From NCBI GenBank assembly GCA_903867985.1, contig CAIPTO010000084.1, positions 22,810 through 86,809 of the forward strand: 64,000 nucleotides of DNA, read 5' to 3'. Below are positions 7,622 through 63,733 of the stretch, in pieces; the first letter of the stretch is position 1; each line of letters opens with the position of its first letter. The notes below the pieces were generated by a model. The model made no database searches and had not been told where the DNA came from. It saw only the letters and a list, made by a program, of their open reading frames with translations. This DNA is from an uncultured Elusimicrobia bacterium. Lineage in GTDB: Bacteria; Elusimicrobiota; Elusimicrobia; Elusimicrobiales; UBA9959. The position numbers and the translations under genes are program-made.

Positions 7622-7661
7622 ATCCTCTAGTCCTCTAATCCTCTAATCCTCTAATCCTCTA
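7622..7661. repeat. Octamer tandem array (CTAATCCT family), single arm overlapping the deoB stop codon
   Basis: ctagtcct ctaatcct ctaatcct ctaatcct at 7627-7658. Confidence 0.85.
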
Positions 7662-8878
7662 ACAATCTTCCTATATTCCTTCTGCACTCCGAAAAGTTGA
7701 GCCGTCACATGCCCTATATCCGAGAGCCCGGGGCATACGCCGGTTTTAATACCACCCAGTTTCCCGTCATAGCCATTACGCGCTGCAATAAACGGCAGTG
7801 GTTCTTTGGAATGATAGCCATAATCCTCCTTATGCTCCATACCGTGATCGGCGGTGATCATAAAAAGGTCGCCTTTATCCATCCGGCTTTCAAAGAGCGG
7901 AATTATGCGGTCTATTTCCATAATGGCCTTCAGAGCGCCCGGGATATCACGCGTGTGGCCGTAGACGCTGTCCGTGTCCACTAAATTGGTAAATATGAAA
8001 GTTCCTCTGGGACGATAGATGTGTTTTGCTCCGGCCAGGGCGTTTATGGTCCCCTGTATGCAGTACGGGTTGGTGTCTTTTTTCTTAGGGTGGACGAATC
8101 GGAGGCCAAGGGCCGGATCGATGAACATTTCATGATTAAGTTTAATTTTGGCGTGATAAGAGGTGTTCACCAGGTCGCTGGTCTTACCCACAGCCACCGT
8201 CCAGACGTTATTCTCGCGCAAAATATCAACCAGCGTCTTCTGGCCGATCGGCAGCACGGCGTCGTGCCGGTTGGAGGTGCGCACAATATCCCCCCCGGCG
8301 CTCTTTATATAGGCCCGGGCAATAGCGCGGGTTATAGGAAGCCCCATCTCCATGGCCAGCGCGAAGGCGATGTCAGCTATCTTGTGCTGCTCAGCGACGG
8401 GGATCACGGCCTCGTTCATCGCCAGCTGGATGAGCGGATCACATTTGCTGGCGTAGACGATAGGTTTGCCGGTCCGCTCATGTTCCGCCGCGTTGAGCTC
8501 TATCGCCTCCATCCCGGCAGCCATCTTGTTGAAGAACGTCTTGCGGCCAATGCGCTTTTCCAGCTCGACGATGTACTTCTTCGGAAAACCGCTGTTGAAC
8601 AGGTCGTAGGTGCGGTCATCCAGCACACCCATCATCTCGCGATGGCCGACAAGGCTGTCGGCGGTGGCCGAGGCCTGAGTGAGAGCGGCGGCGTAGGATT
8701 TTTTTGAGTGTTTTGGCGCGAAGCGGCTCTTAAACCGCGGTCCGACTATTTCGCCTAAACCCAGACGAGACAGATTCGGGAGATTGACTTTCTTATTGTA
8801 GCTGGCAAGCAGGTGCTCAATGGTAGTAATACCGAGGGCGTCTATGACCAGCAGTAATGCCACAGGTGATTTTTTCAA
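7643..8878 (-). CDS. deoB: Phosphopentomutase (alkaline phosphatase superfamily)
   Basis: LLVIDALG, GHREMMG, RAIARAY, TNLVDTDSVYGHTRD, ITADHG. Likely TTG start at 8878 preceded by GGAGG. Confidence 0.8.
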   Translation of the reverse strand: MKKSPVALLLVIDALGITTIEHLLASYNKKVNLPNLSRLGLGEIVGPRFKSRFAPKHSKKSYAAALTQASATADSLVGHREMMGVLDDRTYDLFNSGFPKKYIVELEKRIGRKTFFNKMAAGMEAIELNAAEHERTGKPIVYASKCDPLIQLAMNEAVIPVAEQHKIADIAFALAMEMGLPITRAIARAYIKSAGGDIVRTSNRHDAVLPIGQKTLVDILRENNVWTVAVGKTSDLVNTSYHAKIKLNHEMFIDPALGLRFVHPKKKDTNPYCIQGTINALAGAKHIYRPRGTFIFTNLVDTDSVYGHTRDIPGALKAIMEIDRIIPLFESRMDKGDLFMITADHGMEHKEDYGYHSKEPLPFIAARNGYDGKLGGIKTGVCPGLSDIGHVTAQLFGVQKEYRKIVRGLED

Positions 8879-52501: not shown

Positions 52502-53749
52502 ATGACTTTTTTAAAGGACATGAAAACCGGGTTGACCAGGAATGTGACTTTTCTGGGCATTGTAAGCGGTCTCACAGATATATCGAGTGAGATGCTCTAC
52601 CCGATAGTGCCTATTTTTCTCACCTCTATACTTGGCGCGCCGATGAGTACAGTGGGGTTTATAGAAGGAGTGGCGGAATCCACCGCCAGCTTCCTAAAGA
52701 TTGCCGGCGGTATGTGGTCGGACAAGGTCGGACGGCGCAAACCATTTGTCGTGGCGGGCTATAGCCTCTCGGCTATCTCAAAACCTGTACTTGCCCTTGC
52801 GTATACCTGGCATTTTGTCCTTTTCTCAAGATTCATAGACCGCGTGGGGAAGGGCCTGCGTACTTCGGCCCGCGACGCGATAATCGCCAACTCCACAGAC
52901 AAGCAACACTGGGGAAAGGCCTTCGGTTTCCACCGGGCTATGGATACGATGGGCGCGGCCCTCGGCCCGCTGGCGGCCCTGCTTATGCTCAATATGATGC
53001 CGCCGGCCGCGCCCGACTACCGCCTCATCTTCATAATCGCTTTTGTTCCCGCCGTACTGGGCGTTTTTGTCCTGATACATTTCGTAAAAGAATCAGCCAA
53101 TAGGGTGGAGGGTTCAGGGTATAGGGTTCAGGGTCAAGGCATTCCGAATAACTCCACCCTAAACCCTAAACCCTCTCCCCTAGCCCCTACCCCTATGTCT
53201 TCCGATTTTAAAACCTTCGTCGGCCTGTACGCAATCTTCGCCCTCGGCAATTCAAGCGATGTCTTCCTAATTATGAAAGCTAAAAGCGTCGGCTTCACCA
53301 CCACCCATGTTATACTGGCTTACACCGGTTACAATCTGGTCTACGCTTTCCTTGCCGCGCCGGCAGGCTGGCTATCAGACAAACTGGGCAGGATCAAAAC
53401 CATGGCTTTCGGCTTCCTGGTCTTCGCCGCCGTTTACCTGGGCTTCGCTACTGCGGATAAGGGATGGATGATCTGGGCACTGTTCGCCCTTTACGGTTTC
53501 TACGGCGCGTTCAACGAGGGTATAGCCAAAGCCGTCATCTCGCATCTTAGCGCGGATGATAATCGCGCCACCGCTATGGGGTATTTTCAGGGCTCTCTGG
53601 GCTTCCTAACCTTCTTCGCCAGTACCATGGCCGGCTTCCTTTGGACCAGATTTTCTCCCGCAGCGCCTTTCCTGATCGGAGCCGGCTGCGCCCTAGTTTC
53701 CACAGCAGCGTTGATAATCTGGAGCAGAAAAAGACAATTAGCATTTTAA
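52502..53749 (+). CDS. MFS transporter carrying an in-frame repeat element in its central loop
   Basis: SGLTDISSEM, GMWSDKVGRRKP, DRVGKGLRTSARDA, GFHRAMDTMGA, GWLSDKLGR. Confidence 0.9.
   Translation: MTFLKDMKTGLTRNVTFLGIVSGLTDISSEMLYPIVPIFLTSILGAPMSTVGFIEGVAESTASFLKIAGGMWSDKVGRRKPFVVAGYSLSAISKPVLALAYTWHFVLFSRFIDRVGKGLRTSARDAIIANSTDKQHWGKAFGFHRAMDTMGAALGPLAALLMLNMMPPAAPDYRLIFIIAFVPAVLGVFVLIHFVKESANRVEGSGYRVQGQGIPNNSTLNPKPSPLAPTPMSSDFKTFVGLYAIFALGNSSDVFLIMKAKSVGFTTTHVILAYTGYNLVYAFLAAPAGWLSDKLGRIKTMAFGFLVFAAVYLGFATADKGWMIWALFALYGFYGAFNEGIAKAVISHLSADDNRATAMGYFQGSLGFLTFFASTMAGFLWTRFSPAAPFLIGAGCALVSTAALIIWSRKRQLAF
53101..53195. repeat. Inverted-arm heptamer element (nAGGGTn / nACCCTn) inside the MFS coding sequence
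   Basis: tagggtg gagggtt cagggta tagggtt cagggtc ... cacccta aacccta aaccctc tccccta gccccta. Confidence 0.88.
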
Positions 53750-53752
53750 TAA

Positions 53753-53773
53753 CACCCTAAACCCTGAACCCTT
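53753..53773. repeat. Single-arm heptamer array (nACCCTn) between the MFS stop and the next start
   Basis: cacccta aaccctg aaccctt. Confidence 0.7.
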
Positions 53774-61356: not shown

Positions 61357-62658
61357 TTAGAAGGGCTCAAGTCCATCTTCTTCCGGATCTCTATCCGCGA
61401 AGGCGTCGTTCGGTGTGAAAAAATCAATTACGGGAGCGGTGGAACTGGAATAAAACCAGTCATATTTGGACTGATATTCATTAAGGGCCGCGGTATTGTT
61501 GGTGAAAACCACGTTTTCAAAGGAATTGACGCTGGCATTAGTAGTCCAGTTAAAGGACCCGGTCTCAAGCAGAGCACCGTCCATGATGGCGAACTTGTTA
61601 TGCAGCGCTCCCGTATCGGTCCTGCCGCCGCGCACCCGGAAATCCACCCCGCTTTCAAAAACATATTTGGCGACCGCGGAGGTCTTTGCCATGGTAGAGT
61701 CCATAATCATGCGTACTTTGACGCCGCGATTTTTTGCGGCCACCACCGCGTCGGCCAGAGGCTTAGATGAGAATGTGAAAGTGACCACATCCAACGTGTG
61801 TTTAGCGGCATCTATGATGCCGGAGAGCCTGTTCTCGGTATTCGAGCCCGGAGAAAAAAGATAAGCCGGCACAGGAACATGATTAAGAGCCATAGCCGGG
61901 GCCGGATCCTGGGGAGGCGTGCCGTAATAACCTTCAGGGACTTCAGGAGAAGCGCCCTGCTCAAGAGTGCGGGACCTTGCCCACATCCATTCAAAATAAT
62001 TCACAAAACCGCTCACATGAACATTATCCCTGACTATGAGCATATTCTCGAAATTGTAGAAAGTGGCGCTGAAAGTCCAGTTGTATGAGCCGACCGAGGC
62101 TACGGCCATATCGAACACGCCTATCTTGTTATGGTTGACTCCGTACGACCTGGTGCCCCGCAGCGTGCGAATATCGATACCGCCGGCGTCTATCAGCTCC
62201 TTCAGGCGGATATTCATATTTGGATAAACATGGCTCTCATCCATTATGATCCGTACCTTTACGCCGCGGTCTCTGGCGCGACGAAGGGCGTCGGGCATAT
62301 CCTGAAGTGTAAGACTATACATGACCACATCGATGGATGACCGGGAGGCGTCTATAAGTTTTACCGTAACTTCGTCGAGATGATTGAAAGAATAGTCGGG
62401 GATGGCGGAAAAATCACCTTTGGCCGAAGTCGGCGCATACACCCGGGGTTCCGGCAGAACCGGCGCCGAAACCTTGAATGGAGCAGGATATGGGAAATCA
62501 AAAGATTGCCCGCCTGACAACCCGGCAGATCCTCCTGCAGAGGAGAAAACCTGAGAAATTGCAATGTTTGAGGTACTGTTAGGATTGCTTTCGGAAAAAA
62601 CGCCAAGGGGCTGAATGAACAATAAAATGCCGGCCAGTTTTAAAGAGAGATTATTCAT
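61357..62658 (-). CDS. Secreted phospholipase D-like nuclease/lipase with two HKD-type domains
   Basis: NHNKIGVFD...GSYNWT and LHNKFAIMD...GSFNWT. Confidence 0.88.
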   Translation of the reverse strand: MNNLSLKLAGILLFIQPLGVFSESNPNSTSNIAISQVFSSAGGSAGLSGGQSFDFPYPAPFKVSAPVLPEPRVYAPTSAKGDFSAIPDYSFNHLDEVTVKLIDASRSSIDVVMYSLTLQDMPDALRRARDRGVKVRIIMDESHVYPNMNIRLKELIDAGGIDIRTLRGTRSYGVNHNKIGVFDMAVASVGSYNWTFSATFYNFENMLIVRDNVHVSGFVNYFEWMWARSRTLEQGASPEVPEGYYGTPPQDPAPAMALNHVPVPAYLFSPGSNTENRLSGIIDAAKHTLDVVTFTFSSKPLADAVVAAKNRGVKVRMIMDSTMAKTSAVAKYVFESGVDFRVRGGRTDTGALHNKFAIMDGALLETGSFNWTTNASVNSFENVVFTNNTAALNEYQSKYDWFYSSSTAPVIDFFTPNDAFADRDPEEDGLEPF

Positions 62659-62740
62659 GTGAACATATTATATATGAAGGAGCCTGTTCTTTAAAGGGCC
62701 CTAAGGCCCAGGCCCGGATGAAACGAAGGGCCTACCCATA

Positions 62741-62984
62741 AGATGCAAAGCAATCCAGTAATTTAGACGCAAAGCAGTCCAGAGGCAAAGCTGTTTAGCG
62801 ATTTATATGCAAGGCAATCTAGCAATTTAGAGGAAAAGTAGTTTGGATGTCAAGCAGTTTAGCTAAACAGCTGAATCGCTGTGCTTCTAAGTCGCTAGCT
62901 AGCCTTACTTCTAAACTGCTTTGCATCTAGATGGCTTTACGTCCAGACTGCCTTGCATCTAGACTGCTTTGCCTCTAGACTGCT
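62741..62984. repeat. Large inverted-arm element of 16-nt units (two alternating octamers), about 245 bp
   Basis: Five AGA(T/G)GCAAAGCAGT(C/T)(C/T)-like units plus AGCAATTT-like octamers in strict 8-nt phase (62741-62876), then inverted AGACTGCTTTGCATCT-like units (62897-62984). Confidence 0.9.
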
Positions 62985-63733
62985 ATATTCAGCAACCGGG
63001 CGACTGACTCGGGATTATTGATACCGTAGGCCGCGGCGATATTAACTCCGGATAAGCCCTCTTTAGCGGGCCCGTAAAAAAGTTGTCCGGCTTTTTTAAG
63101 GATCAGGGCCTTACCGGCGTAAGCTGCCATCAGCGCCAGGTCATGGGAAACCACGATAACACCCATACCACCGGAGGCCAGGCGCGTAAGAAGTTCGAAA
63201 ATCTGGATCTTATAATTTATGTCCAGGTGCGAGGTGGGCTCATCCAACAGAAGAACTTTCGGATCCTGGGCCAAAGCCTGGGCGATAAGAACCAGCTGAC
63301 GTTCACCGCTTGAAAGTGAATTAATACTCCTGTCCCGCAGTTCAGGAACACCCACCTCATTTAATGCGTCATGGACGCGGGAAGCGTCGGCGCCGGAATA
63401 ATCGCGCCACCACGGAACGCGCGGACTGCGCCCCATGAGGACTATTTCAAAAACAGAAAAATCGTAAGGCAGGTAAAGTTCGCTGGGAACATACGCCACA
63501 AGTCGGGCAAGTTCAGCCTTTGAGTAAGCGTGAATATCCCTATCCAGAAGTTTAGCAGAACCCTCCGAAGGCTCCAGGAAACCGCTTATAAGCCTTAGGA
63601 GCGTGGATTTACCGGAACCGTTCGGCCCCATAACCGCGAGCAGATCTTTCTCCATAAGTTCAAAACCGGCGCCAGCCACCGCCGGGGCGCCATTATATGA
63701 AAACTTAAGACCTTCAACTTTTATCAGCATCAT
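62975..63733 (-). CDS. Iron-siderophore/cobalamin ABC transporter ATP-binding protein
   Basis: GPNGSGKST, LSSGERQ, LLLDEPTSHLD, VSHDL. Confidence 0.9.
   Translation of the reverse strand: MMLIKVEGLKFSYNGAPAVAGAGFELMEKDLLAVMGPNGSGKSTLLRLISGFLEPSEGSAKLLDRDIHAYSKAELARLVAYVPSELYLPYDFSVFEIVLMGRSPRVPWWRDYSGADASRVHDALNEVGVPELRDRSINSLSSGERQLVLIAQALAQDPKVLLLDEPTSHLDINYKIQIFELLTRLASGGMGVIVVSHDLALMAAYAGKALILKKAGQLFYGPAKEGLSGVNIAAAYGINNPESVARLLNIAV

Follow-up and report, generated by a model that had tools for sequence, protein, structure and literature searches.

The 244-nt palindrome between an ABC-transporter ATPase gene and a PLD-family gene is, in our judgement and with moderate confidence, the largest copy of a lineage-restricted, non-coding fold-back repeat family that spread by copying, whose arrays would have changed in length afterwards and which is mainly tolerated, self-propagating DNA. 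Nothing shows a dedicated function for the palindrome. The window (the whole 64,000-nt stretch of DNA that was analysed) is part of a 103.9-kb contig (C84), in which the palindrome is internal, of an Elusimicrobiota MAG (G000; 2.62 Mb, 147 contigs, 52.5% GC). The relatives retrieved with the PLD protein were Elusimicrobia MAGs. The comparisons below are chiefly with a sister species (G002), and the features of the junction are listed in the table.

Features of the palindrome and its gene junction (window coordinates; a slash marks the centre of the palindrome)
Feature	Position	Strand	Remarks
PLD-family gene	61357..62658	-	433 aa; two PLDc_2 domains (PF13091); downstream of the palindrome
Promoter-like site	62667..62695	-	TTTAAA-17-TATAAT, 10/12 matches; ends 9 nt before the PLD ATG; kept in the sister species
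Small GC hairpin	62696..62709	-	GGGCCTTAGGGCCC; between palindrome and PLD ATG, downstream of the palindrome; kept in the sister species
Left arm	62741..62862	.	15 octamers + AG, order ABBABABB ABBABAB
Conserved asymmetric family core	62845..62892	.	(A B) AG/CT (B' B' A'); ~25 copies in two genomes
Right arm	62863..62984	.	CT + 15 octamers; complements B' = RRAYNGCT, A' = TTGCMTCT
ABC-transporter ATPase gene	62975..63733	-	252 aa; PF00005; stop codon 62975-62977 within the last right-arm unit

Architecture, folding and gene surroundings of the palindrome

The palindrome (inverted-repeat pair I21) occupies 62741-62984 with its dyad centre between 62862 and 62863, where AGCAGTTTAG meets CTAAACAGCT. 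Each arm is composed of 15 octamers plus AG or CT, with six octamers of type A (AGAKGCAA) and nine of type B (AGCARTYY). Counted from 62741, the 8-nt phase is unbroken across all 244 nt: of the 16 phase positions in each arm, 13 begin with AG on the left (the remaining three being AT, GG and GG) and 13 with CT on the right (the remaining three being CC). Self-identity was 0.39, 0.54, 0.47 and 0.52 at lags of 8, 16, 24 and 32, respectively, compared to approximately 0.25 in Markov shuffles (z = 4.8 to 9.1), and 0 of 2000 shuffles matched the palindrome. The preliminary description of an approximately 245-bp palindrome of 16-nt units was accurate in the letters it quoted, with a length of 244 nt and complete arms, and its unbroken 8-nt phase of two octamer types was upheld both by cutting the sequence into octamers and by the lag self-identity against shuffles. 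A stretch at 62863-62910 that had been set apart as a unique spacer is in reality the right arm's inner portion, a run of degenerate B'B'A' octamers, and the palindrome is therefore complete about its centre.

The two arms differ in their internal order. The left arm consists of two copies of a 64-nt super-unit (TRF: period 64, 1.9 copies, 77% matches). The right arm, read as its complement, is ordered BABABABABABBABB, with an inner 48 nt of degenerate B'B'A' units and an outer part with a 16-nt period (TRF: period 16, 4.7 copies). The core in this copy reads GGATGTCAAGCAGTTT AGCT AAACAGCT GAATCGCT GTGCTTCT. In-register complementarity of the arms was 71% over 70 nt, and 21 inverted pairs were found in several registers. 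No GGG run occurs in 62741-62984 and the unit consensus AGAKGCAAAGCARTYT has no G-tract. An Rfam scan of the whole window returned no match at gathering score.

Folding was strong on each strand, as RNA and as DNA, with z of about -6 throughout. The minimum free energy of the RNA was -118.6 kcal/mol on the - strand (z = -6.3) and -111.0 kcal/mol on the + strand (z = -6.0), and that of the DNA was -51.7 kcal/mol (z = -5.9). The MFE structure had a frequency of approximately 0.0005 in the ensemble, which fits many alternative registers. The long imperfect hairpin or cruciform proposed earlier was thus borne out as a structure that can fold on either strand in many registers; nothing indicated that the RNA form is the one selected, and the family as a whole has no sense-strand advantage. 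Among the 21 co-directional copies in G000 (copies lying between genes read in the same direction), the sense strand folded better in six, the antisense strand in ten and five were ties, and the orientation of the core relative to transcription was 11:10, with no preference. This absence of bias in both MFE strand and core orientation leaves no family-wide strand-specific RNA signal, and a role of that kind was rejected. The copy studied here had the better fold on the sense (-) strand in the same comparison (-99.1 kcal/mol compared to -88.0 kcal/mol for antisense).

The ATPase gene ends within the palindrome. Its final codons Ala-Val-stop (GCAGTCTAG; GCA GTC TAG) are element sequence in both G000 and the sister species. 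A terminator scan of the - strand found no terminator-like site at the palindrome and no T-run after the hairpin, and the small GC hairpin at 62696-62709 was not called either. This small hairpin was also tried as a repeat family of its own and rejected, with nine matches compared to five in the control. The placement of the palindrome in the transcript path between the ATPase and PLD genes was correct as to position, between two - strand genes; co-transcription through the palindrome is not needed, because the PLD gene has a conserved promoter-like site of its own. Separately, no Shine-Dalgarno sequence was visible ahead of the PLD ATG (62656-62695, - strand), and the PLD mRNA may be leaderless or nearly so.

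The repeat family, its distribution and candidate enzymes

Related units elsewhere in the genome, on which the earlier reading had depended, were readily found, with a BLAST of the region matching many intergenic sites. A position weight matrix (PWM) made from 16-nt units detected 29 clusters in G000 compared to none in the reversed genome, and the palindrome studied here was the largest. A stricter search of the genome, for palindromes paired in register with at least 28 matches over 40-nt arms, was discarded as a family finder; it gave 12 hits only, and such a scan is thus too insensitive for multi-register elements. The family core has the form ...GGATGTAAAGCRATTT AG/CT AAATTGCT GAATCGCT TTGCCTCT..., i.e., ...GCARTTTAG/CTAAAYTGC..., and occurs in both orientations. 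The arms are arrays of a 16-nt composite unit, AGAKGCAA + AGCARTYY, to which an additional B octamer is sometimes added, the other side being complementary. In every two-armed copy in both G000 and G002 the GCAAAGC array stands ahead of the GCTTTGC array, the commonest distance between the last '+' unit and the first '-' unit being 28 nt.

Gene contexts, assigned by an ORF heuristic and not from annotation, were co-directional for 21 of 27 G000 copies, convergent for three and divergent for three. Many copies start at or inside the upstream stop codon, with TAG sharing the first AG of the element, and finish a few bases before the next start codon. Element boundaries (n = 116) start with AG(A/C), preceded by T in 47%, and carried neither a GTAG/CGTC tag nor any other upstream target motif.

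The same polarity was seen in other repeat families. The purine-rich array came first in 13 of 14 convergent TRF array pairs with a period of 7 or 8 across the whole of G000 (examples in the window are 53109-53195 and 7622-7662). With the purine-rich arm 5' on both strands, the two purine-rich strands converge at the centre with their 3' ends. Heptamer arrays at 53156-53174 and 53754-53772 have the unit ACCCTAA, the complement of TTTAGGG, which we take to be the plant-type telomere repeat; the likeness is probably a coincidence.

The family was restricted to a small number of genomes. Among 41 relatives it was present in G000 (25 two-unit hits) and its congener G002 (52) only, with traces in G001, G008 and G016 and 0 hits in controls. 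A 401-genome sample of the phylum added G190 and G321, both of the genus of G016, to G000, together with one hit in G008, all within one taxonomic family. Across more than 400 genomes, the family-bearing groups were the species of G000, the sister species G002 and one other genus, and a GCATAGC variant of the unit was found in G016 (L006, L010). Five of seven sampled species of the window's own genus lack the family, and no hit was obtained among IMG/VR viral contigs. With so few carriers among the 41 relatives and the 401-genome sample, the distribution is patchy and recent, and a patchy spread in two genera suggests transfer or repeated loss.

A possible origin of such a family is a REP/REPIN-type element moved by a RAYT (Y1 HUH transposase), or a classical MITE moved by an IS transposase. 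The units are quasi-palindromic, the family is dispersed, mostly intergenic and hairpin-forming, and Y1_Tnp genes exist in both genomes (two in G000 and four in G002). Both G000 genes (on C71 and C96) are, however, bracketed by other repeats, AAAAAGGTAGCGTCTACCTTTTT and AATTAAGTTGTGTGTCACTTTAA, and not by GCAAAGC units, and congeners that do not carry the family have Y1 genes too. The tags and target motif expected of such elements are missing from the element ends, as noted above, and no coding partner, IS or otherwise, was seen beside any copy. The single empty site of the family (described below) carries no target-site duplication, which would suit single-strand HUH transposition but speaks against a classical MITE. 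Taken with these points, mobilization by either route is, we think, decidedly improbable. The two Y1_Tnp (RAYT/IS200-like) genes, at C96:1390-2310 and C71:2920-3780 (L047), each have their own palindromic repeats, AAAAAGGTAGCGTCTACCTTTTT with GTAG and CGTC tags, and these loci look like classical REP-RAYT units unrelated to the palindrome.

Nothing visible connected the only RVT_1 gene of G000 with the family, and some relatives have no reverse transcriptase at all. That gene (C46:376-960, L056) lies approximately 250 nt from a strong palindrome, AGTTCCGGGGACAGTATAT..., at C46:114, and the two may form a retron-like unit.

Conservation, copying and replacement between sister species

An orthologous copy of the palindrome was found on G002 contig C120 between the same ABC-ATPase and PLD genes, in flanking DNA that is approximately 90% identical to that of G000. 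The orthologues align over the full element length with 92% identity (199/216). The G000 element is longer by a net 40 nt: one arm has an additional exact 16-nt unit, and the other has approximately 24 additional nt at its outer end. Octamers counted by hand were 15+15 in G000 and 13+13 in G002. This matched change in both arms is treated as a coincidence, because other orthologous pairs alter one arm only. Non-zero length differences between shared orthologues were multiples of 8 in 5 of 16 cases, with approximately two expected.

An independent 11.8-kb metagenome contig carries the same copy, identical to that of G002 over the stretch read. A further 65.8-kb metagenome contig, from a third close relative (L051; Ga0247841_10001051), appears from its positions 1-30 to start 8 nt before the GC hairpin, so that this assembly may have broken at the repeat. 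Such a break is a reminder that assemblers can fail here, and collapsed or chimeric repeats could in principle have produced the palindrome. An artefact of this kind is nevertheless extremely improbable, with the palindrome lying inside a long contig and the same structure recurring at the G002 orthologous site and on the independent contig with unit-size differences only.

The 92% identity of the orthologues exceeds the values for their surroundings, 83% in the adjacent spacer and 74% for third codon positions in both flanking genes. When the two copies were folded to a consensus with RNAalifold, pairing survived every substitution that fell in a paired column (8 of 8 sense and 5 of 5 antisense), a result obtained from two sequences with a method that is biased in that direction. 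Identity above that of third positions and spacer, together with the pairing kept, is more than would be expected of junk DNA and hints that this copy is under constraint. This copy could accordingly be modelled as a selected RNA hairpin at the 3' end of the ABC-transporter transcript, where it would act as a 3'-exonuclease barrier, as an RNase III substrate or as an insulator before the separately promoted PLD gene. Such a model would also draw on the better fold of the sense (-) strand in this copy and on the start of the element inside the ATPase stop codon. It is weakened by the hairpin's want of a T-run, by the absence of the element from most relatives, by the lack of any sense-strand or orientation preference in the family, and by the covariation itself, which comes from two sequences, mostly via G-U pairs, with the structure itself picked to suit those sequences. 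At family level the picture is different: the 17 shared orthologous copies had a pooled identity of 78%, no higher than the approximately 80% at the least conserved codon phase (third positions) of their flanks, so that evolution of the family overall is roughly neutral. Conservation exceeded that of the flanks in this copy and in three more (94%, 90% and 87%). On this evidence we regard a selected RNA hairpin as unlikely, though the most credible of the alternatives to tolerated, self-propagating DNA.

Further sites were also compared. G002 was covered in part, and which species gained or lost an element is our reading of the comparison. A total of 29 G002 sites could be placed in G000, where 17 carried the same family and approximately nine a different tandem-unit hairpin family; of the remaining sites, one held an unrelated non-repeat sequence, one a degenerate relic and one was empty. 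The different families in G000 were octamers (AGAGGATT/CTAATCCT), heptamers (ACCCTA-type) and GCCATA-type repeats, and the replaced segments had identical boundaries, with the stop codon on one side and the next start codon or hairpin on the other. The family's sole empty site (C43:13930-13936; GGGGT compared to 84 nt in G002) showed no target-site duplication. Over approximately 170 kb compared between G000 and G002, 27 gaps of at least 35 nt were found between collinear matches, and most of these were hairpin elements of several families present in one species only. Heptamer hairpins likewise formed presence/absence pairs, at C84:86545-86552 compared to G002 L046:3527-3691 and at C60:401-402 compared to L023:2125-2237, the empty sites again having no target-site duplication.

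Idiosyncratic sequence was common to separate loci. Approximately 90 nt of the degenerate inner units and centre of the palindrome recur at G002 L034:3071-3170, and the units in common include GGCGAGCT AGCGACTT AGAAGCAC GGCGATTC AGCAGTTT AG/CT. An odd centre, GGAGGTAAGGARGCAAAGTCTGCGCT, is common to three G002 copies within 4.4 kb, only one of which has a G000 orthologue, and the core of the copy at G000 C72:4990 is found again in G002, where the site, placed in G000 coordinates, is 7 kb away. Such shared odd units and centres point to whole-element copying and show, at the level of sequence comparison, that existing elements have been copied between loci and not generated locally. The suggestion that the palindrome would be the best template for working out how the units are generated holds in part: the orthologue differs by an exact 16-nt unit and the left arm is a 64-nt duplication, but the units are not mainly generated in place, whole elements being copied.

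Repeat-derived inserts were also found in frame within a gene. A hotspot lies in a DegT/DnrJ/EryC1-like aminotransferase gene (assigned by conserved motifs), between DNCDALGSRY and YTGTFGDIG, at G000 C82:59217-59352, G002 L033:2930-3031, G004 L057, G001 L058, G009 L059 and G016 L060. The insert is 3 aa long in other genera, 7 aa in G001 and 32 aa in G004, where it is made from GGAAGGTT octamers; in G000 it comprises 46 aa from GGAGGACT/CTAATCCT octamers and in G002 41 aa from the GCAAAGC 16-mer family. All inserts are stop-free and their boundaries are identical.

The strict polarity of the arms raises a further model, in which the arrays arose in situ as 3' ends at a break or hairpin were extended in a templated or iterative manner (by a telomerase-, reverse-transcriptase- or primase-like activity) and the purine-rich 3' ends joined at the AGCT centre. 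Extension of this kind would fit a purine-rich arm that is always 5' in every two-armed copy and in 13 of 14 pairs of other families, a centre always at the same unit phase, an empty site without target-site duplication, and congeners that hold different unit families at identical boundaries, even in frame in the DegT-type gene. The degenerate units and odd centres common to loci argue instead for copying and not for synthesis from a unit template; the RVT_1 gene of G000 is unlinked and some relatives are without reverse transcriptases; and the orthologous arrays changed by two indels only over approximately 26% synonymous divergence. Arm polarity is thus compatible with a break-healing model, the copied idiosyncratic units speak against purely template-driven synthesis, and we consider on-the-spot writing of the arrays very improbable.

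Under our preferred reading of the family as tolerated, self-propagating DNA, whole elements or their inner parts are copied to other sites, usually intergenic and often nearby, the copying itself being the step shown by the shared units. Many copies finish precisely at the upstream gene's stop codon, some occupy places where the sister species has an older repeat family, and their arrays would later expand or contract by 8, 16 or 64 nt through slippage or unequal exchange. Once in place, an element such as the palindrome may form a long hairpin of many registers within the 3' UTR of the ABC-transporter mRNA, or a cruciform, and may serve as a generic 3' stabiliser or insulator. The element would nonetheless be primarily tolerated DNA that propagates itself.

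A broader proposal, which we put forward as a long shot, is that all tandem-unit hairpins here (the 16-mer, octamer GGAGGACT/CTAATCCT and heptamer families) come from one unrecognised hairpin-directed copy-and-replace mechanism. It would install convergent arrays, purine arm first, at fixed boundaries and without target-site duplication, and could displace an older family from its site, an example of such a site being in frame in the aminotransferase gene. Candidate routes would be a single-strand HUH enzyme that works in trans, a switch of replication template from a hairpin at one locus to a hairpin at another, or templated 3'-end extension at breaks.

Relation to known repeats and significance

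Cyanobacterial STRR heptamers are a related kind of tandem repeat. The BOX element of Streptococcus pneumoniae is modular, boxA-(boxB)n-boxC, with modules of 45 to 59 nt, distinct terminal modules and no known transposase. The palindrome resembles BOX as a modular intergenic fold-back with variable internal tandem modules; it differs in its unrelated sequence and in that both arms are arrays of one unit.

Among the closest published arrangements is that of the intergenic heptamer repeats of Xanthomonas (GGGAATC) and Nostoc, which form convergent pairs (Rehm et al. 2015, PMC4692102). As in those pairs, which belong to a type defined by head-to-tail units of 6-9 nt, short tandem units form two arrays that face each other, the purine- or G-rich one leading on each strand, the elements are dispersed, mostly between aligned ORFs and near stop codons (21 of 27 G000 copies being co-directional), and related species differ in repeat number while the arrangement is kept (PMC4692102). 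Unlike the heptamers, the unit here is a composite 16-mer in 8-nt phase, and the palindrome has no G-tracts, so that no G-quadruplex is possible. The family also differs in its conserved asymmetric core, in the idiosyncratic units common to loci and in its lower copy number, approximately 30 to 50 per genome.

REP/BIME and REPIN elements (PMC3116915, PMC3733652) share with the family short quasi-palindromic units, an intergenic and often intra-operon position, hairpin formation, inverted clusters and the lack of target-site duplication. In contrast to REP/REPIN-RAYT systems, there is here no GTAG/CGTC tag and no RAYT gene bracketed by these units, and in contrast to REP/BIME, long direct arrays face a complementary array in place of alternating inverted pairs. 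MITEs such as ERIC/IRU and Correia (Delihas 2011, PMC3184786) are likewise small dispersed repeats without coding capacity, imperfect palindromes that lie at the ends of genes and can be co-transcribed; the present elements differ in their variable length, in their arms of tandem units and in the lack of a target-site duplication at their one empty site. The palindrome resembles the Xanthomonas/Nostoc convergent pairs and like REP/BIME- or BOX-type fold-backs, a kind of element already described, of which it would be a new variant.

Tandem-unit fold-backs occupy many gene junctions in uncultured bacteria, and the literature on them is thin beyond the Xanthomonas and cyanobacterial heptamers. 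Such repeats matter for assembly, as contigs break at them, and for the annotation of gene ends, as they provide genes with stop codons and, when inside a gene, can be read through. How the elements evolve is illustrated by this copy together with its orthologue and paralogue: unit-size steps, whole-element copying, strict polarity and swaps of families between sister species. A single mechanism behind all of this would amount to a new mode of DNA mobility or repair; if there is no single mechanism, the elements would be ordinary selfish or neutral DNA.
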